64,000 nucleotides of DNA from Patescibacteria group bacterium UBA3466 (GCA_002378195.1 DFRJ01000001.1:29517-93516), one strand, 5' to 3'; shown: positions 9,473-62,749, numbered from the stretch's first letter. Numbers and translations: made by a program. Notes: generated by a model from the letters alone, not told the origin.

Positions 9473-9626
9473 ACTACTAATGATGCCTCCAATTATTTTT
9501 TACGCAAGCTCAGTATGCACTTAATCATGACGAGAACTCTCTGCTTTACAAAGCTTTCACCTCCCCTCTACCGACACCTATTTTTTCTGGCTTCTATGTC
9601 AATCGATTGACATAGAAGAGTAGGTA

Positions 9627-11862: not shown

Positions 11863-12585
11863 ATGATAAAGATAATTAAATGGTCAGCAATTGGAATCTT
11901 TGGTTTGGCTATTTTCTTTCTTACCTTTTGGCCAACCATCTTGAGCACTTACGCATGGTATTCGGCCTATTTCTTTACCGAAAAAACAAATCCTAATGTT
12001 CATATAACCCTGGACCAAAACATGACCGTGGTAGCGGTCGACGGTTTGGAGTCATTTACCTTGGGCAATATAAAAATTCCCATCCTATTTGAAAATTACA
12101 GCATCGAAGAGCAGGAAGCATCAGTAATAATCAGTGACCAAGACTCTGATGCTGTTTACATTTTTTATGTCGGTACACCACTTTTGAAAAACTTTTTACT
12201 CCACCAACAATTTGCGGACCATGACCAAACTGAAGTGTGTCACAAACTGAGCAAGATAAATGGCGCCAACCCTTGCGACAGCGACAAGGCATTTTTACAA
12301 GTACAGGCTGATGTCTCTAAGCACAATATCGGATTATTTTCTGGCAACACAATAAAGTTATTTGGATCAATCATGCTAGTACTTAAGAGTGCATACATTG
12401 CCCCTGACACGCTCCGAATTATTCCTTATGACAACGAAGCGTCGAGTGGTTTTATATACGAAACACAAAACGGCGTATCTGTGAACGTCTTTGAAGATGA
12501 AAATACCTATTATGATATTGCTGCCTACCGGATGGACCGTGAGCAAATAGAGACAGTGATTGGAGCGGTGGAATTTGTGGAGTAA
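11863..12585 (+). CDS. Hypothetical protein with an N-terminal membrane anchor
   Basis: The ORF is 240 aa with one N-terminal transmembrane helix. Confidence 0.5.
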   Translation: MIKIIKWSAIGIFGLAIFFLTFWPTILSTYAWYSAYFFTEKTNPNVHITLDQNMTVVAVDGLESFTLGNIKIPILFENYSIEEQEASVIISDQDSDAVYIFYVGTPLLKNFLLHQQFADHDQTEVCHKLSKINGANPCDSDKAFLQVQADVSKHNIGLFSGNTIKLFGSIMLVLKSAYIAPDTLRIIPYDNEASSGFIYETQNGVSVNVFEDENTYYDIAAYRMDREQIETVIGAVEFVE

Positions 12586-12620
12586 AAAAGGCCGGCGCCG
12601 AAGGCGCCGGCCTTTTTTAT
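12584..12620. terminator. Bidirectional intrinsic terminator
   Basis: The sequence aaaaag-ggccggcgcc-gaag-gcgccggcc-tttttt sits between convergent genes. Confidence 0.8.
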
Positions 12621-19044: not shown

Positions 19045-19084
19045 ATAAAAAGCGGCGGGCCCAAAGGGCCCGCCGCTTTTTATT
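19045..19084. terminator. Bidirectional terminator
   Basis: aaaaa-gcggcgggccc-aaa-gggcccgccgc-ttttt. Confidence 0.8.
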
Positions 19085-19973
19085 TAACCCACACCGCTTT
19101 TCCATCAGTCTTAAATATAATAGTTCCCTCTTCGGCAGTGTTCAAAATCTTTGCACCAGCATTTAGCGTGCGCTCTACCACTTCTGTATTTGGATGACCG
19201 TAGCGGTTATCTCTGCCGGCTGACACCACTGCATAATCTGGCTGCACTACACTTAAAAATAAGTCGGAAGTTGAAGTCTTTGAACCATGATGGCCAAGCT
19301 TCAACACTTCGCTTGCAAGAGAAGCCCCGTGAGTCTTTGAAAGATAGTCTTCAATACCCATTGGCGCGTCCCCGGTTAACATGAAATCAATATCTCCATA
19401 CGTGAGCTGCACAATAATAGAAGCGGCGTTACTTTCCCAATTGGACGTATCACCAAAGGGTGACAAAACTCTCATGGTAGTAGATGCTCCCAACTGAATT
19501 ACTTGTCCAGCTTGGGCGCTGATGAGTTTTGCTCCTTCAGCGGCAGCGGCGCGGGCGAAAGCCCGCGCCGCTGCCGCCTCATGATCAACTTCTGTCCACA
19601 AGATTGTTCCCACTTGATACCGCTCTAAAACGTCATTCAAGCCGCCAACATGATCTGTATCAGGGTGAGTAGCTATCACAACATCCAAACTTCTATCGAA
19701 CAATGACCGATCTTTTGCCAACTCTAACAGAACTGCGGTGGACGCCCCGCCATCAATCACCACTTCTACCCCATCTGGAGTACGAACATATATGGCATCA
19801 CCTTGTCCAACATCCATAAAACGAACTTCTAGGAGGTCGGTAGCTGACTCGGCTGAGTCAGCTACGGGTAGCCAAACCAAAATTGAAAACACCGTCAAGA
19901 TGCTGATGGTGAACGCTCTTAACCAGACAAAATTTACTTTCATTACATCATGATACAATGAGCAAAAATCCAA
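19080..19973 (-). CDS. Standalone metallo-beta-lactamase domain protein related to the ComEC/Rec2 C-terminal domain
   Basis: There is an N-terminal signal or transmembrane segment, and the MBL motifs ATHPDTDHVGG and LKLGHHGS are present. Confidence 0.75.
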   Translation of the reverse strand: MDFCSLYHDVMKVNFVWLRAFTISILTVFSILVWLPVADSAESATDLLEVRFMDVGQGDAIYVRTPDGVEVVIDGGASTAVLLELAKDRSLFDRSLDVVIATHPDTDHVGGLNDVLERYQVGTILWTEVDHEAAAARAFARAAAAEGAKLISAQAGQVIQLGASTTMRVLSPFGDTSNWESNAASIIVQLTYGDIDFMLTGDAPMGIEDYLSKTHGASLASEVLKLGHHGSKTSTSDLFLSVVQPDYAVVSAGRDNRYGHPNTEVVERTLNAGAKILNTAEEGTIIFKTDGKAVWVK

Positions 19974-19993
19974 TAACCAAGAAATAAACTAAT

Positions 19994-20572
19994 ATGAAGT
20001 ACGAAGCACTTACATTTGATATCCCCGAACTAGATGGCATCTCTAGTGAATCCGTTGAAGATCACATTGGTCTGTACCAAGGGTACGTAAAGAACCTCAA
20101 CCTAATCCGCGAAAAGATTGCAGCCTATGCCAACGATCCTGACAACAACGCCTACGCTATTTCTGAAATGCAGAGACGTTTGGGTTTTGAGTTTGGCGGC
20201 ATGCGCAATCACGAATACTATTTCTCGCAACTTGAAGGCGGTCACAAACCCCTACCCGACGGTGCTCTTAAAAGAAAAATGGAAGAGCAGTGGGGTTCGT
20301 TTGAAAATTGGTTAGCCCGCTTCCGTGAAATTGCTTTGACCCGTGGTATTGGTTGGGCCATGCTCTACCACGACCCGCACACAGACCAATTGGTACAAAC
20401 TTGGGTGGATGAACAACACCTCGGCCAACTACCAGATCTGGATTTAATCTTGGCACTCGACATGTGGGAACACTCATACATGCGAGACTACCGCGCACCA
20501 GACAAAGCCAAGTACGTCGACGCATTCTTTAGGAACATCAACTGGGAAGTAGTGGCTGGGCGCTTGATCTAG
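19994..20572 (+). CDS. Divergent Fe/Mn superoxide dismutase family protein
   Basis: The C-terminal DMWEHSYMRDY...NINWEVV matches the SOD D-x-W-E-H signature and RNHEYYF is conserved, but the N-terminal His pair is altered. Confidence 0.6.
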   Translation: MKYEALTFDIPELDGISSESVEDHIGLYQGYVKNLNLIREKIAAYANDPDNNAYAISEMQRRLGFEFGGMRNHEYYFSQLEGGHKPLPDGALKRKMEEQWGSFENWLARFREIALTRGIGWAMLYHDPHTDQLVQTWVDEQHLGQLPDLDLILALDMWEHSYMRDYRAPDKAKYVDAFFRNINWEVVAGRLI

Positions 20573-20630
20573 TTGCAATAATTCAAACGATAAGTATCAT
20601 ACCCTCAGACTTGAACTGAGGTTTTGTCTT

Positions 20631-20918
20631 ATGGACTTACCAACAAATCACCGATATACCTCATACTACCTACCCCGTTGGTGGAAACACCCAGCCATGA
20701 GGTGGTACCGGAGACTCAAGGTGTGGTGGTGGTCGAAACGAGGTTTTGCCTCCTATCAACGGGCCGTCTCTTGGCAGCATGCTCGCATCCCATATGGCAA
20801 AGAGCGCTTTTACCATGAAGGCATGGCCATCATGACTGTACGTCGAGTACGGCAACGCAGATATATTCTTTGCACTGCCAAACAGTCAGACTATGCTCTC
20901 GACCAATTTCTAAATTAA
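20631..20918 (+). CDS. Small Trp/Arg-rich hypothetical protein
   Basis: It follows the hairpin cctcagact-tgaa-ctgagg, and the choice of frame is uncertain. Confidence 0.25.
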   Translation: MDLPTNHRYTSYYLPRWWKHPAMRWYRRLKVWWWSKRGFASYQRAVSWQHARIPYGKERFYHEGMAIMTVRRVRQRRYILCTAKQSDYALDQFLN

Positions 20919-20919
20919 T

Positions 20920-20994
20920 CTAACGAAAAAATATCGGGATATCATCGGCCGGTTTGTCTGGCGCCACAGGCGCCTTAGGCAAACCGGCCATTTC
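20920..20994. repeat. 75-bp perfect direct repeat, copy 1
   Basis: ctaacgaaaaaatatcgggatatcatcggccggtttgtctggcgccacaggcgccttaggcaaaccggccatttc is identical to 22406-22480 and contains a nested 10-bp hairpin (ggccggtttg...caaaccggcc). Confidence 0.9.
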
Positions 20995-21019
20995 TGTCTC
21001 TACTTAATAGTGCGGCAAA

Positions 21020-21925
21020 ATGCTGCCATGCTACAATCACAACATGCATGAGCCAAAAAAGTTAGTTCTTGTAACTGGAGCTTCTGGTGCAATTGGGCGA
21101 GACTATTTGGAAGAATTTTCCGAGTTACCTGAATTTGATTGCGTTGCTATTGCTAGGAGAGAATTTGAAACCTCAGCTGATAATTTTACTTTTTTAGAGC
21201 TTGATTTACTTGATGAGGCAAAAGTAAACGAATCAATACAAACCATAGATTTTTCAGTATATTCTGAAGTTGTGTTCATACACTCTGTTGGGATGTTTAA
21301 ATACGAACCAAATGGTGAGCCCTCAATAGATAATGATGAAGATGGTATCGATGATGAAGTATACAAAACAAACATTGAGACCTTTGTAAATATCATTAAA
21401 CCACTTTATAAAAGAATGCTGCAATCTGAAGAAGGCTTTAAGTTGTCACTATATGGAATGGGGTCTGTGTCTGACAAACATCAAATCAAATACTGGCAGT
21501 CTTACACCAAATCAAAAAACATTCTCCGTTCAATCATATACAACCTAATTCAAGAGAATCCGGAACAAGTTAAAGGCATGATGTTCAATGTCAGTACAGT
21601 AGACACAGAAAAGGAAAACGAGCTAAGACCTAACGCTGAAAAAACTTATTGGCTTAGCGGTAAAGAAATTGCCGTAGCAACGTTACCTTTTATTATTAAA
21701 GGTAAGTTCGGAGAATGGAAAGAGTTGGACATTTTTAAGAACTCACCACTTTTTGAAGATGGATACTATGAAAACTTAAGTGAAATTAGAAAACGCTGGG
21801 AGCAACAAATGAAGCAGAATGAAAATCCGGGTGAAAATATTTTTGAAGAAATTGACGGCGAGGTAGCAACTCGCCTCTTTGAAGCTAAGCCGCCTCTAGA
21901 TGGACCTTTCTTTAAATTTAGGTAG
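21020..21925 (+). CDS. SDR-family NAD(P)-binding oxidoreductase
   Basis: VTGASGAIG is a Rossmann motif and YTKSK is a YxxxK active site. The ATG at 21044 lies 6 nt after tacaat, so the mRNA may be leaderless. Confidence 0.65.
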   Translation: MLPCYNHNMHEPKKLVLVTGASGAIGRDYLEEFSELPEFDCVAIARREFETSADNFTFLELDLLDEAKVNESIQTIDFSVYSEVVFIHSVGMFKYEPNGEPSIDNDEDGIDDEVYKTNIETFVNIIKPLYKRMLQSEEGFKLSLYGMGSVSDKHQIKYWQSYTKSKNILRSIIYNLIQENPEQVKGMMFNVSTVDTEKENELRPNAEKTYWLSGKEIAVATLPFIIKGKFGEWKELDIFKNSPLFEDGYYENLSEIRKRWEQQMKQNENPGENIFEEIDGEVATRLFEAKPPLDGPFFKFR

Positions 21926-22361
21926 AAAGCAATTTTTCTACATCAATAAACATAGGTGTACCTTCCCACAACATCTCAAACATCTGCTTCACTGTTTGAA
22001 ATATTGCATCATCATCAATTGTGATCACCTTTAAATCATCATAAGAAATAAGTACTACCCTGCCCTCAAATACAATTAAGTCAGTATCGATTTTAGTTTC
22101 TCTTGGAAGATATCGTATCTCCTGAGTTTCATTGTTGTAATAGTCAGCGTACGGAACTGGACGATTGTTACCAGCTATTAATTCTTTTACATACACGCCG
22201 GCTTTTGCAACACGTTCTCCTATCTCTCTTGAATAGTCGCCCCACTGGTCAACTACTGCATCAGTAGAGTAGAGAGAATAGTACCAATCGACAAGAGGTA
22301 ATTGCTCATAAATGTCGTGGATCGCTTCTTCACCTTTTGTTACTAGTACTCCTTCTATCAT
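21918..22361 (-). CDS. Hypothetical protein
   Basis: A 147-aa ORF whose 3' end overlaps the SDR gene convergently by 8 nt. Confidence 0.45.
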   Translation of the reverse strand: MIEGVLVTKGEEAIHDIYEQLPLVDWYYSLYSTDAVVDQWGDYSREIGERVAKAGVYVKELIAGNNRPVPYADYYNNETQEIRYLPRETKIDTDLIVFEGRVVLISYDDLKVITIDDDAIFQTVKQMFEMLWEGTPMFIDVEKLLST

Positions 22362-22405
22362 GTTTTGGATTATAGCACAGGGAAATAAAACATGAATGTT
22401 ATAGC

Positions 22406-22480
22406 CTAACGAAAAAATATCGGGATATCATCGGCCGGTTTGTCTGGCGCCACAGGCGCCTTAGGCAAACCGGCCATTTC
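22406..22480. repeat. 75-bp perfect direct repeat, copy 2, which also encodes the comEC C-terminus
   Basis: It is identical to 20920-20994. On the minus strand it encodes EMAGLPKAPVAPDKPADDIPIFFR plus the stop codon of comEC. Confidence 0.9.
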
Positions 22481-23965
22481 CTTTTCCTCTTCAACTACCC
22501 AACCGTTGCCGTTTTTTCGATAATTTGCATAAGCTATAAGCATCACCATCAATAAATACATGAACGGCACTAAATAGGCTGGAAAACTTGGTACACTCAC
22601 GGCAGCAAAAGGCAAAGATGCAAAGCGCTCAGCGACTACCAAAATGTAGTTGAGGCTCAAATCAGCCAGATAAGCGATCGGTTGCGCTAACGTAATAGAA
22701 ATTAACCCCACTACTCCTGTCAGAAACGTTAGTAGCATAGCAACCGGCACTACCGGCAACACTAAAACATTAACGACAATCGCTACTAGCGACACTTCCC
22801 CAATATGGTAAAGCAAAAGTGGTAAAACAGCGATCTGAGTAGTGAGAGTGGCCACCAAAAACTCCGAGATTTTAATTTTCTTAGCACTCAAGAGAGCTGT
22901 TTCAAAATATGGTGACAAAATAATCAAGCCTAATGTCGCCATAAATGATAGCTGAAAACCAATGTCATACAAAAGTAAATACGGATTGATAGCAATCATT
23001 ACTAAACCAGCAAAAATTAGCGCTCGCATCACATTGTATTCACGTCCAAACGACTGGGCAAACAACACCAACGAAGCCATGATGCTGGCGCGCACCACGG
23101 TAGCTGATAAACCAACAATCAAGGCAAAAGAAACAATTGCTACCAATCCAGCCACAAAGCGCCAGCGTAGTGGTAGAAAGAATGAGAAAATAAATAGAAT
23201 AAAAGCTACTACCAGCATTACGTTGTAGCCAGACAAAACCACAATGTGAATGATGCCAGTTTTTCGAAAATCTTCCTCAATATCATCTCCCAAAGAAGAC
23301 TGCACTCCCAACAAAAGTCCGTTGCCCAGTGCCACTTCCGGCTCCGGAATAGTCTGTTTTACCGAATTGATAAAAGCGTGCTTGGCGGCCAAAAGCATGC
23401 CCACAAACCAATTACCACCACCTGAATCAAGCACCGACACCTCCGCAAAAGATAGGCGATACTCCACACCGCGAGCTTTGAGATAATTTTCATAATCAAA
23501 AGTACGGCCTAGATCAGTGGTAAACGAAGTTGGTTTATCTAAGCGCCCGGTTATCTGCACCCGATCTCCATAAGACAAATCTGTTAAACGATCGGCACTC
23601 ACCAACACTCGATCATCAGAAGTTGTTACATAAAACTGCACCTGATTAGCTCGGTAATCCGGCTCTTCATCAATTACTCCGATCAATTCGATCGAGCTGC
23701 CGACAGACTCTTCCAGGTTAGACTTACCAAATTGCCAAGTCGCTAGCTCCGTTCGAAAAATCCCCAACGCGAGCGCTAGCATGATTACACTGAGTCCCAA
23801 AACCGGCTGACACAGAGTCTGACAAGAACGCTTTCGCCACCATAAAGCCAAAGCCAGACTAAGCACCATCAGCCAGACCACGTACTCAGACGAAATATTA
23901 AATATAGTACGAGCGGCAATTCCACCAGTAAAAGAAATCGCTATGACTTCAAATAAATAGCGCAT
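22406..23965 (-). CDS. comEC: ComEC/Rec2 competence channel protein without the MBL domain
   Basis: It has multiple transmembrane helices and the conserved competence-domain block IIHIVVLSGYNVMLV...RASIMASLVLFAQSFGREYN...FQLSFMATLG. Confidence 0.85.
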   Translation of the reverse strand: MRYLFEVIAISFTGGIAARTIFNISSEYVVWLMVLSLALALWWRKRSCQTLCQPVLGLSVIMLALALGIFRTELATWQFGKSNLEESVGSSIELIGVIDEEPDYRANQVQFYVTTSDDRVLVSADRLTDLSYGDRVQITGRLDKPTSFTTDLGRTFDYENYLKARGVEYRLSFAEVSVLDSGGGNWFVGMLLAAKHAFINSVKQTIPEPEVALGNGLLLGVQSSLGDDIEEDFRKTGIIHIVVLSGYNVMLVVAFILFIFSFFLPLRWRFVAGLVAIVSFALIVGLSATVVRASIMASLVLFAQSFGREYNVMRALIFAGLVMIAINPYLLLYDIGFQLSFMATLGLIILSPYFETALLSAKKIKISEFLVATLTTQIAVLPLLLYHIGEVSLVAIVVNVLVLPVVPVAMLLTFLTGVVGLISITLAQPIAYLADLSLNYILVVAERFASLPFAAVSVPSFPAYLVPFMYLLMVMLIAYANYRKNGNGWVVEEEKEMAGLPKAPVAPDKPADDIPIFFR

Positions 23966-43204: not shown

Positions 43205-43233
43205 AATCTACAAGTAAGGTAAATAAAAAGGCC

Positions 43234-43270
43234 GGCGCCTTCGGCGCCGGCCTTTTTATTTACAAACCTC
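43234..43270. terminator. Intrinsic terminator
   Basis: aaaaa-ggccggcgcc-ttcg-gcgccggcc-ttttt. Confidence 0.8.
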
Positions 43271-44871: not shown

Positions 44872-44919
44872 AAAGGCCGGAGGAGCAAAGCTCCTCCGGC
44901 CTTTAGCCTAAACATGCTA
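44872..44919. repeat. 48-nt repeat (terminator hairpin plus tail), copy 1
   Basis: aaaggccggaggagcaaagctcctccggcctttagcctaaacatgcta is identical to 46545-46592. It lies between convergent genes, and its last 3 nt give the TAG stop of the minus-strand gene. Confidence 0.85.
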
Positions 44920-45588
44920 CCCCCGTAAACGTGCCCGCACCATCAAGTATGACGGATACGTGTCACCGTTAATCTCTTCGCAGCCATCTGACAATCCTTC
45001 TTCTAGAGAGATCAGATCAAAATTTTGAAGAAAAAAAGGATTAAAGAAATCTACAAATGTATGACTTGGCTCCGCCACCGTAACTTTTCCATCGAATAAA
45101 ACTGAGTGCACAACCTCCTGTTTAAAGTAATTCTTACCAACTCTTTTCTTCTCGACGAACTGCCGAATCGGATGAACCCAAAGAAAGACTATTTCTGCGG
45201 CAGGATTCAGATGCTGCACCAACCTGAGAAGGAATGAATGGTAGGAGTATACATTTTGGATTGCCCATTTACTTACGACCAAATCAAAACTTTCTTTGGC
45301 AGGAAGGCCGTTGAGCGTTTCCATATCTGAAACATACAAATTGTCGGCTACTGCTTTTGTCTTCGCAACACTAATCATATCAGGCGAAATATCAAGGCCA
45401 ACAATTCTAGATGCTCCCCTAGATTGATACTCGATAAATTCATCACCTGGACCGCATCCCAAATCAAGCAACTTCTTACCAACCAATGAATCGGGTATCG
45501 ATCTCAGGAATGAACGAGTGCAATGCTGCTTGTACCCATCAAATAAATTCCATCCGAAAGATAGCTCGCCATCATATTGGTTTTTCAT
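44917..45588 (-). CDS. Class I SAM-dependent methyltransferase
   Basis: LLDLGCGPGDEF is motif I. The start was moved to the Met with a GGAG RBS (MKNQYDG). Confidence 0.75.
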   Translation of the reverse strand: MKNQYDGELSFGWNLFDGYKQHCTRSFLRSIPDSLVGKKLLDLGCGPGDEFIEYQSRGASRIVGLDISPDMISVAKTKAVADNLYVSDMETLNGLPAKESFDLVVSKWAIQNVYSYHSFLLRLVQHLNPAAEIVFLWVHPIRQFVEKKRVGKNYFKQEVVHSVLFDGKVTVAEPSHTFVDFFNPFFLQNFDLISLEEGLSDGCEEINGDTYPSYLMVRARLRG

Positions 45589-45696
45589 AGAACTTCTCCT
45601 TTTAATAAAGACCAAGGTGAAAACATTAAAACGTAAATTTTTGACAATTTCAAAAATAAATGTATTAATGTATTAAATTTAAAGTTTTTCTTTAAA

Positions 45697-46521
45697 ATGT
45701 TTAACTCAAAACATCAATCAACTGAAGACAAGTTAATCTCCCTACTGCTCAATGGAGAGCATACCGTCGCAGAATTATTCAAACAGCTCAACCAAAATGG
45801 CCATAAGATATCGCTACAAGCAGTCTACGACGCTATCAGACAGCTTGTTTCTGCGGGAGTGGTGATAAAGCAATCAAAATTATGCAGCCTAGATGCAGAG
45901 TGGAGAATTAAAACTGCAAATATCTTAAGTAGCACTCCCTCCTTGCCGGAGCCGCTGGAAGGCGAAGCGCAAACATTTAACTTTAATTCGTTTAACAGTT
46001 TGGATACTTATTGGAAACACATTAATGCTCTACTGACCCGAGCTGTTCCTGATTACCCTGTTTTTTATTTCGTGTCGCATGAGTTTTGGGTGTATCAGGA
46101 GGAAAGAAAAGAGAGTCAGCTAGATTTCATCAAGCAACAAACGAGTAAGCGAAGTACGTACATTCTTATCGGTGGCACAACTCAATACGACAAAATATAC
46201 AAAGAAAGGTTCAGGCAATACCGTCAGATTGAACTAAGTGAATTTACTCCACTCAAACGACATGAACATCTTACAGTATGTGGTGACTTTGTAATTTTCA
46301 CTAAAATTACAAAAACGACATCGGAATTGATAGATAAAATATACCAGGAAAGTGTAAATGAAACTGAATTAACATCTTCATTACAAAAAATCTTTACCTC
46401 GAAGCAAAAAACGTCTCTGGTCATCAAGCGCGATGCAAGCCTTGCAATAAAATTAAGAAAGCAGATTAGTAAGAACATGTACCTCCCAAAAGAAGAAAGA
46501 GAGAAGTGGAAATTCTTCTAA
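45697..46521 (+). CDS. Hypothetical protein with an N-terminal winged-helix-like region
   Basis: LISLLLNGEHTVAELFKQL...AVYDAIRQLVSAGVV resembles a MarR/ArsR-like winged helix. The rest of the 274-aa product is unknown. Confidence 0.45.
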   Translation: MFNSKHQSTEDKLISLLLNGEHTVAELFKQLNQNGHKISLQAVYDAIRQLVSAGVVIKQSKLCSLDAEWRIKTANILSSTPSLPEPLEGEAQTFNFNSFNSLDTYWKHINALLTRAVPDYPVFYFVSHEFWVYQEERKESQLDFIKQQTSKRSTYILIGGTTQYDKIYKERFRQYRQIELSEFTPLKRHEHLTVCGDFVIFTKITKTTSELIDKIYQESVNETELTSSLQKIFTSKQKTSLVIKRDASLAIKLRKQISKNMYLPKEEREKWKFF

Positions 46522-46544
46522 ACCTTACTAATTTTCATAAAGAG

Positions 46545-46592
46545 AAAGGCCGGAGGAGCAAAGCTCCTCCGGCCTTTAGCCTAAACATGCTA
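46545..46592. repeat. 48-nt repeat, copy 2
   Basis: Identical to 44872-44919, and again it supplies the stop codon of the minus-strand gene at 46590. Confidence 0.85.
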
Positions 46593-48494: not shown

Positions 48495-48565
48495 GCGGGT
48501 GTAGTTTAGTGGTAAAACGACTGCCTTCCAAGCAGTAGTCGGGAGTTCGATTCTTCTCACCCGCA
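48495..48565 (+). tRNA. tRNA-Gly (anticodon TCC)
   Basis: It folds as a cloverleaf by hand: acceptor gcgggtg/cacccgc, D-arm gttt/aaac, anticodon stem actgc/gcagt with loop cttccaa, and T-loop ttcgatt. A terminator follows at 48576-48605. Confidence 0.85.
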
Positions 48566-48615
48566 CAGCCAACATGAAAAGCCGTCCCGAAGGGGACGGC
48601 TTTTCTGTTGCTGCT

Positions 48616-62428: not shown

Positions 62429-62499
62429 CGGGGTGTAGCATAATGGTAGTGTACACGGTTTGGGACCGTGCGGCCCGGGTTCGATTCCCGGCTCCCCGA
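62429..62499 (+). tRNA. tRNA-Pro (anticodon TGG)
   Basis: The hand fold gives acceptor cggggtg/ctccccg with one mismatch at 6:67, D-arm gcat/gtgt with two G-U pairs, anticodon stem cacgg/ccgtg with loop tttggga, and T-arm ccggg-ttcgatt-cccgg. A terminator hairpin follows at 62508-62540. Confidence 0.75.
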
Positions 62500-62624
62500 C
62501 AGCGAGTAAAATGGTCAGACTGTAGTCTGGCCATTTTACTTCTGTGGCCGGGATCGAAAAGGTTAGTCAGGTACTTTTGCGAATGCTTGGAGCAAAATAT
62601 CGACAACCTGCACTGAACCTGTAA

Positions 62625-62648
62625 GGTTCGATTCCCGGCTCCCCGACA
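62625..62648 (+). repeat. 24-nt duplicate of the tRNA-Pro 3' end (att-like scar)
   Basis: ggttcgattcccggctccccgaca is identical to 62478-62501, and the preceding T-stem strand is absent, so this copy is not a tRNA. Confidence 0.85.
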
Positions 62649-62749
62649 AAGAATTGAATAATCGGACCGTAGGTCTGATTATTTTTATTTTATGACCGCG
62701 ATCGAAGTGGCTAGTCGGACATCGTACATAAGAGGTTTACTGACTGAAT

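Follow-up and report, generated by a model that had tools for sequence, protein, structure and literature searches.

In Neisseria, minimal mobile elements are cassettes that lie between conserved flanking genes and are exchanged by transformation and homologous recombination. Some integrative elements restore the 3' end of the gene they enter, as the prophages residing in tRNA genes or in icd do; they need both an integrase and a fixed attachment site that is carried by the element. A further class, rare and already described, is the insertion with long target duplication, which emerged from genome comparison in Helicobacter pylori and was later recognized in several bacteria, most of which are naturally competent (Nobusato et al., Gene 2000, 259:99; Furuta et al., NAR 2010, PMC2853133). 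Its hallmarks are a gene unit of a few kb bracketed by direct repeats of more than 30 bp (from about 46 bp upward in the published tables), with the repeat present in a single copy at the empty site (PMC2853133). The target gene survives, as the repeats often cover a start or stop codon; neither a transposase or integrase nor terminal inverted repeats are found, and the mechanism is unknown (PMC2853133). The published screens searched the surroundings of restriction-modification genes, and their authors connected the mechanism with DNA breaks made by such enzymes (PMC2853133). Here we describe a two-gene cassette inserted at the 3' end of the competence gene comEC in a 64,000-nucleotide stretch of DNA, termed the window, from Patescibacteria group bacterium UBA3466 (GCA_002378195.1 DFRJ01000001.1:29517-93516). 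The insertion matches the long-target-duplication class, and it adds to the published cases a cargo unrelated to restriction, a marine ultra-small host of the Candidate Phyla Radiation (CPR), and one cassette clade found at three loci.

The cassette is bracketed by two copies of a 75-bp direct repeat that are identical at all 75 positions (Table 1). Identity ends sharply on both sides of the repeats, the next 11 nt matching at 6 of 11 positions. Within the 64-kb window the 75-mer occurs twice when up to three mismatches are allowed, compared with an expectation of zero copies from 100 shuffles. Each copy holds a nested GC hairpin (20947-20989 in copy 1 and 22433-22475 in copy 2) with a folding energy of -37.2 kcal/mol (z = -6.9), and 27 of the 75 nt are unique comEC coding sequence outside this hairpin. 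Copy 2 encodes EMAGLPKAPVAPDKPADDIPIFFR followed by TAG, that is, the last 24 codons and the stop of the comEC open reading frame (ORF). In copy 1, the comEC frame is closed by a TAA codon four codons upstream. The C-terminal tail ...D(D/x)(I/L/V)P(I/V)FFR is kept in nearly all ComEC homologues of about 520 aa, several of which finish with DKPADD(I/L)PVFFR, and the window protein itself ends with ...DDIPIFFR. Because the tail is conserved across homologues, copy 2 is taken as the ancestral coding sequence and copy 1 as the duplicate. These results bear out a sequence-only reading of the stretch, which had described a perfect 75-bp repeat with a nested hairpin and had recognized copy 1 as a displaced duplicate of the comEC end.

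The region between the repeat copies has a GC content of 0.33-0.39, compared to 0.44-0.50 in the flanks, and GC at third codon positions is 0.31-0.32 in the cassette genes (0.31 in the first of them) versus 0.38-0.53 in the neighboring genes. For the cassette, GC values of 0.36-0.38 were obtained, against about 0.45. By composition, the cassette is thus foreign-looking, and it was probably acquired horizontally. The first gene encodes an oxidoreductase of the short-chain dehydrogenase/reductase (SDR) type and is preceded by an extended -10 box, TGCTACAAT, at 21029-21037, six nt before the ATG; the second, convergent gene encodes a 147-aa protein, and seven nt separate its ATG from an extended -10 box, TGCTATAAT (22369-22377, minus strand). 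Both genes are probably leaderless. The gene calls of the sequence-only reading, namely the SDR gene with its promoter, the convergent 147-aa gene and three neighboring genes discussed below (a tryptophan-rich ORF, a superoxide dismutase and a standalone metallo-beta-lactamase protein), all hold. The SDR family is rare, with 41 clusters in total, nine of which are above 48% identity. For the 147-aa protein, of which only seven clusters are known, searches of Pfam, NCBIfam, PADLOC and PHROG returned no match. Its AlphaFold2 model (pLDDT, the predicted local distance difference test, of 83) gave TrmBL2 and TrmB as the best Foldseek matches (E = 6e-8), and the protein is 24-28% identical to the C-terminal part of full-length TrmB-type regulators. 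The HKD nuclease site is absent, since no histidine is conserved. A role of this protein as a nuclease or recombinase was considered and found unsupported, the best structural matches being TrmB effector domains. Family searches with the cassette proteins revealed no restriction-modification, defense-system or recombinase match, and no relatives of these proteins were present in the viral contig collection.

With respect to the described classes, the window cassette shares with insertions of the long-target-duplication type a repeat longer than 30 bp, an insert of 1411 bp (less than 20 kb) and the absence of a mobility gene in or near the insert: no integrase or transposase family was detected within +/-10 kb of the cassette, and no terminal inverted repeats were found at its ends. 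It differs from the published cases in its cargo, an SDR and a TrmB-effector-like protein in place of restriction-modification genes, in its CPR host, and in the recurrence of the signature at three loci of one cassette clade. It resembles the minimal mobile elements of Neisseria in that a small cargo free of mobility genes lies between conserved genes of a transformable host and could spread by host recombination, whereas those elements are not defined by a long target duplication. As with the integrative elements that rebuild a 3' end, a displaced gene-end fragment and the intact gene bracket the insert as direct repeats; however, the window cassette has neither an integrase nor a fixed attachment site. 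A DNA transposon or insertion sequence was ruled out on account of the missing terminal inverted repeats and transposase and of the duplication length, 75 bp rather than less than 15 bp. An integron attC cassette was likewise dropped, on visual inspection and with no attC covariance model applied: the CTAAC found at one end lacks a GTTRRRY partner at the other, the hairpin is a near-perfect palindrome located in coding sequence, and no IntI-type gene lies nearby.

A second, unrelated cassette with the same design is present in the same window, between the genes for ribonuclease (RNase) Y and a 217-aa protein (Table 1). It is bracketed by a direct repeat identical at 48 of 48 positions, which also exceeds 30 bp, and its cargo, a methyltransferase and a winged helix-turn-helix (wHTH) protein, is again not of the restriction-modification kind. 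Each 48-nt copy comprises a terminator hairpin and the CTA stop codon of a minus-strand gene. The CTA in copy 1 is the stop of the methyltransferase gene, and that in copy 2 is the stop of the 217-aa gene.

The SDR and 147-aa genes form a rare linked module that was also identified in contigs of other origin. The two genes are in divergent order in seven of these contigs (L014, L015, L016, L019-L021 and L023), and no flanking repeats were detected at the five divergent loci that had both flanks on the contig and were searched (L014, L016, L019, L020 and L023). The convergent order, with a gene overlap of 4-8 nt, is found in the window and in contigs L017 and L013, which come from other metagenomes, and the trees of the two proteins unite these three in one clade. 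The three convergent loci are different, and each is bracketed by the duplicated end of the host gene that adjoins the 147-aa gene. In the window, the 3' end of comEC is duplicated over 75 nt with 100% identity and a spacing of 1486 bp. In L017, it is the 3' end of the RNase HII gene, duplicated over at least 73 nt with 92% identity and a spacing of 1530 bp, the contig starting inside copy 1. In L013, the 5' end of a cupin gene is duplicated over 121 nt with 84% identity, and the spacing of 2132 bp accommodates one extra ORF. The repeats of these three loci and of the second window cassette have no word of 7 nt or longer in common, and alignment of the cassette ends from the window, L017 and L013 revealed no conserved termini beyond the promoters. 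Two further contigs, L018 and L034, carry an SDR gene without the 147-aa gene. L018 was considered as a fourth convergent case and rejected, since its SDR gene has a breakpoint at nt 1632 relative to L019; within L018 1545-2507 this breakpoint falls nine codons into the gene. In L034 (97-2066), the SDR-family gene adjoins an IS256-type transposase gene, and in L023 (1459-1995) it is located beside two tRNA genes, which enclose a GIY-YIG-like ORF, and a gene for a full-length TrmB regulator.

The best explanation of the locus, which we regard as reasonably probable, is that the 1.41-kb cassette entered where comEC and a 95-aa tryptophan-rich (W-rich) ORF meet tail to tail, duplicating 75 bp of the target, and that neither an element-encoded recombinase nor a fixed attachment site was involved. 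Since the TAA of the W-rich ORF is located 1 nt from the comEC stop in copy 1, the two genes would have been arranged tail to tail and would have shared the 75-bp segment before the insertion; the W-rich ORF was thus probably in this position before the cassette arrived. Foreign DNA probably entered by natural transformation, as DNA uptake via ComEC followed by recombination has been shown in Patescibacteria (PMC10633639). It would then have been joined by a recombinase-independent host process that copied the target on both sides. Candidates for this step are fill-in at a widely staggered break and a replicative template switch to the incoming DNA and back to a point behind the departure point, perhaps favored by the hairpin. 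Once formed, the repeat-flanked unit could spread to sister genomes by ordinary homologous recombination. The duplicated segment also looks like the embedded terminator of comEC. Its duplication left comEC with an intact 3' end in copy 2 and would have left the convergent ORF with a terminator in copy 1; both genes therefore keep their ends, and selection would tolerate such insertions. Copy 1, which lies between the W-rich ORF and the SDR promoter, probably acts as a terminator or insulator.

The predicted terminator function of the segment is in line with what was found in relatives. In two of them (L011 and L012, 57-60% ComEC identity), a strong hairpin of quite different sequence is present inside the last ~75 nt of comEC and is followed by the T-rich P-x-F-F-R codons, and a convergent superoxide dismutase gene abuts or overlaps the comEC stop codon with no intergenic space. 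The end of comEC, with its hairpin and T-tract, therefore has the appearance of an intrinsic terminator that lies within coding sequence. The stem motif of the 75-mer hairpin, GGCCGG...GGCGCC, resembles a common terminator family of this genome, termed D1. The members of D1 are near-identical bidirectional terminators of the form AAAAAGGCCGGCGCC-loop-GGCGCCGGCCTTTTT, with eight sites between 8201 and 48606 of the window (e.g., 12585-12617 and 43225-43257).

Several observations weigh against the proposed target duplication. No near-identical genome with an empty site was found among 16 contigs; the nearest cassette-free relatives have 57-60% ComEC identity and also lack the W-rich ORF, and the single-copy state of the target is accordingly shown by gene order only, not at the nucleotide level. 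The copy count of the 75-mer applies to the 64-kb window. The L017 contig begins within copy 1, so that the outer flank lies outside the contig. Among the codon changes that separate the two L013 repeat copies over 37 codons, nine are synonymous and only two, both conservative, are non-synonymous, whereas simple decay in place should make about 60% of the changed codons non-synonymous (binomial estimate, P ~0.006). Because the changes are mainly synonymous, two functional alleles joined by homologous recombination would, at least at that locus, fit better than the decay of a target duplication. Two routes could have led to this state: the intact gene may have been replaced later by another allele, or a circle or tandem copy bearing the repeat may have re-integrated into a diverged sister genome.

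We also assessed the assembly and the population behind the window. The contig of the window itself (L004) and three contigs of other samples and assemblies (L005, L006 and L008) show an identical linear arrangement, k119 and k127 MEGAHIT contigs being among those assembled in this way. The structure is thus not a one-off misassembly. Two contigs, L007 and L009, end inside copy 1; their breaks were rejected as evidence of polymorphism, since assemblers break at repeats anyway. No deletion, empty-site or circle variants were found among the 16 contigs encoding an identical ComEC, the neighbors being the same in all of them. Six retrieved contigs were at least 99.98% identical to the window, and the sampled population is thus clonal. 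Loss of the cassette by recombination between the 75-bp repeats, a possibility raised in the sequence-only reading, is physically plausible. Metagenome and viral scans with the 43-nt hairpin returned nothing, the source contig included, and have therefore no bearing on copy number or empty sites.

Among the alternatives, a Campbell-type event would involve a circular or tandem DNA carrying the cassette together with a comEC 3' end, which recombined once with the chromosomal comEC 3' end. The convergent gene order is a circular permutation of the divergent order, which points to a circle or tandem at some stage; a circle with one repeat copy is what would come free if the two repeats recombined; and the mainly synonymous differences in L013 are those expected for two functional alleles. 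However, the incoming DNA must already carry the target, that is, it must come from a donor with the cassette beside the same gene, and this donor must be of the same species, since the corresponding segment of the relatives with 57-60% ComEC identity is completely different in nucleotides. Such an event explains spread among sister strains, but not the arrival at three unrelated loci (comEC, RNase HII and cupin). As the source of the window locus we consider it unlikely, and because homologous routes cannot place a cassette beside three unrelated genes, they are retained as a secondary mechanism. A tyrosine or serine recombinase acting in trans, with the 75-mer as the attL/attR identity block and a replacement comEC 3' end carried by the element, as in some prophages that enter protein-coding or tRNA genes, appears still less likely. 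Such integration classically leaves direct repeats made of a gene 3' end, and a duplicated tRNA-Pro 3' end at 62478-62672 indicates that integrase-type events may occur in this genome. The sequence-only reading had offered site-specific recombination as the source of the duplication; this proposal is not supported, given the lack of an integrase in the cassette or within +/-10 kb, the small size of the element (1.4 kb) with two cargo-like genes, and the unrelated repeats of 48-121 nt, those at the three loci of the clade sharing no word of 7 nt or more.

It has also to be considered that the SDR/147-aa pair is itself a self-mobilizing element of a new kind, in which the protein with the phospholipase D (PLD) fold, possibly together with the SDR-like protein, would make widely staggered cuts and insert the cassette with target duplications of 70-120 bp. 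The predicted PLD fold of the 147-aa protein is shared with the nucleases Nuc, Zucchini and BfiI, and such an element would account for the signature of one clade at three unrelated loci. We regard this as very improbable. The smallest probability is assigned to the explanation that a dispersed terminator flanks two genes by chance, or that the arrangement is an artefact of an empty chromosome and a free circle that share the 75-mer. The resemblance of the hairpin stem to family D1 and the breaks of L007 and L009 inside copy 1 speak in its favor, as does the fact that, with k below 75, an integrated cassette yields the same de Bruijn graph as an empty site together with a circle. Against it stand the mere two copies per 64 kb even with three mismatches allowed, the 27 of 75 nt that are unique to comEC, the same linear arrangement in the window contig and in three contigs of other samples and assemblies, and the recurrence of the design in L013 and L017. 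We therefore retain the insertion with target duplication by a host process as our explanation of the window cassette.

Gene gain through insertion with long target duplication is poorly understood and was until now tied to restriction-modification genes. The cargo described here consists of ordinary genes with no relation to restriction-modification and so speaks for a property of the host rather than the action of a restriction enzyme. This view is also supported by the naturally transformable CPR host, which has very few classical mobile elements, and by the recurrence of the signature at three loci of one clade, together with a second cassette in the same 64 kb. If a host process is indeed responsible, it may be a main way in which streamlined CPR genomes gain new genes. 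Laboratory transformation has become available for Saccharibacteria, which makes the mechanism testable.

The sequence-only reading had further noted that the ComEC of the window lacks the usual metallo-beta-lactamase (MBL) domain and that a standalone MBL protein of the ComEC type is encoded nearby. Both statements are confirmed by the full-length ComEC model TIGR00361, of which the standalone MBL protein covers positions 436-663 (E = 8.5e-36) and the channel protein positions 82-410. Neither half reaches the cut-off set for the full-length protein, in keeping with a split gene. The DUF4131, Competence and MBL nuclease domains are all present and are spread over two proteins, which represents a split form of ComEC/Rec2. 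All 120 of the 120 best ComEC homologues are proteins of about 520 aa with DUF4131 and Competence only and have no MBL domain. A ComEC scan of genome contigs returned only a relative with 45% identity and members of two unrelated phyla. In three relatives with 57-60% ComEC identity (L010, L011 and L012), comEC is followed by a convergent superoxide dismutase (SOD) gene, with no SDR gene, 147-aa gene or W-rich ORF; the SOD proteins at this position are 78-82% identical to that of the window. L010 and L012 continue after the SOD gene with a 287-aa MBL gene, L28 and an M50 peptidase, and L011 stops within the start of the MBL gene. The Saccharibacteria relative with 45% identity likewise has the SOD gene after comEC. 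The direct comEC-SOD succession in L010, L011, L012 and also L001 thus represents the empty site at the level of gene order.

The sequence-only reading had suggested that the inserted DNA interrupted an ancestral comEC-MBL arrangement. This suggestion is contradicted by L010-L012, in which comEC and the MBL gene are already split by the SOD gene and no cassette is present, the very arrangement that the reading had named as evidence against it. Because relatives that are free of the cassette already have the comEC-SOD-MBL order, the split predates the cassette; on gene order, it is an ancestral trait of the lineage that is unrelated to the insertion.

ComEC proteins without a C-terminal MBL domain are common: almost half of ComECs lack this domain, and the profile of DUF4131 plus Competence (DC) is the second most frequent (Pimentel and Zhang, 2018, PMC6299819; Silale et al., 2021, PMC8579336). 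By what means organisms with such a ComEC degrade the non-transforming strand is described as an open question (PMC8579336). The window channel protein is like the DC-type ComECs in having no MBL nuclease domain, but differs in that the domain is present as a separate protein, which has an N-terminal hydrophobic segment and is encoded two genes away in a conserved comEC-SOD-MBL synteny. No mention of such an arrangement was found in PMC6299819 or PMC8579336. The nearby standalone MBL protein is a candidate supplier of the missing nuclease function. The synteny suggests that ComECs that seem to lack the nuclease can have this domain supplied as a separate protein, and the split form thus bears on the question of non-transforming strand degradation raised in PMC8579336. 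The standalone MBL protein reads HPDTDH at the position of the HxHxDH motif of canonical MBL enzymes.

Table 1. Coordinates and properties of the features described in the text. Positions are those of the window unless a contig is named.
Feature	Coordinates	Strand	Remarks
Standalone ComEC-type MBL protein	19080..19943 (/19973)	-	Pfam Lactamase_B; N-terminal hydrophobic segment
Fe/Mn superoxide dismutase	19994..20572	+	Between comEC and the MBL gene across the lineage
W/R-rich ORF	20631..20918	+	95 aa; outside the repeat pair
Repeat copy 1	20920..20994	-	Displaced duplicate of the last 24 codons and stop of comEC
Inserted cassette	20995..22405		1411 bp; low GC; two genes
SDR-type oxidoreductase	21044..21925	+	293 aa; cargo; Rossmann enzyme; Pfam adh_short, E = 2.6e-9
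147-aa protein	21918..22361	-	Cargo; predicted standalone PLD-like fold of the TrmB/TrmBL2 C-terminal effector-domain type
Repeat copy 2	22406..22480	-	Genuine comEC 3' end: hairpin, T-rich PIFFR codons, TAG stop
comEC	22406..23965	-	519 aa; channel part only (DUF4131 + Competence); gene intact
Second, unrelated cassette	44872..46592		48-nt perfect direct repeat, 44872-44919 / 46545-46592; between RNase Y gene and 217-aa gene
Class I S-adenosylmethionine-dependent methyltransferase	44917-45615	-	Low GC; small-molecule type; second cassette
wHTH protein	45697-46521	+	274 aa; second cassette
comEC-terminal hairpin, contig L011	~9490-9557		Followed by T-rich P(I/V)FFR codons
comEC-terminal hairpin, contig L012	~9480-9560		Followed by T-rich P(I/V)FFR codons

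The W-rich ORF has a host-like GC content of 0.49, and is absent from the relatives L010-L012; a search of 1.84 billion representative proteins gave it only two homologues, both small and 43-47% identical. Other repeat structures were observed in the window and in other CPR-type contigs. In L025 (3981-4910), a pair of 64-nt repeats with 91% identity surrounds a single methyltransferase gene, which like the second window cassette speaks for the proposed kind of insertion, and in L010 (14502-14808) a pair of 73-nt repeats with 90% identity, 234 nt apart, lies directly after the S7 gene. The last 24 nt of the tRNA-Pro gene of the window (62429-62500) recur 147 nt downstream (62625-62648), each copy being followed by its own terminator hairpin, which is possibly the scar of an integrase-type event. 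Between 49332 and 51685 of the window, next to a tRNA-Gly gene (48495-48566), there are five direct copies of an invariant 22-nt core, GTTCGAACATCGTTGAATAACC, spaced 462-692 nt apart. A different hairpin follows each core and single small genes in either orientation lie between them. The region resembles an array of cassettes that share one boundary site.

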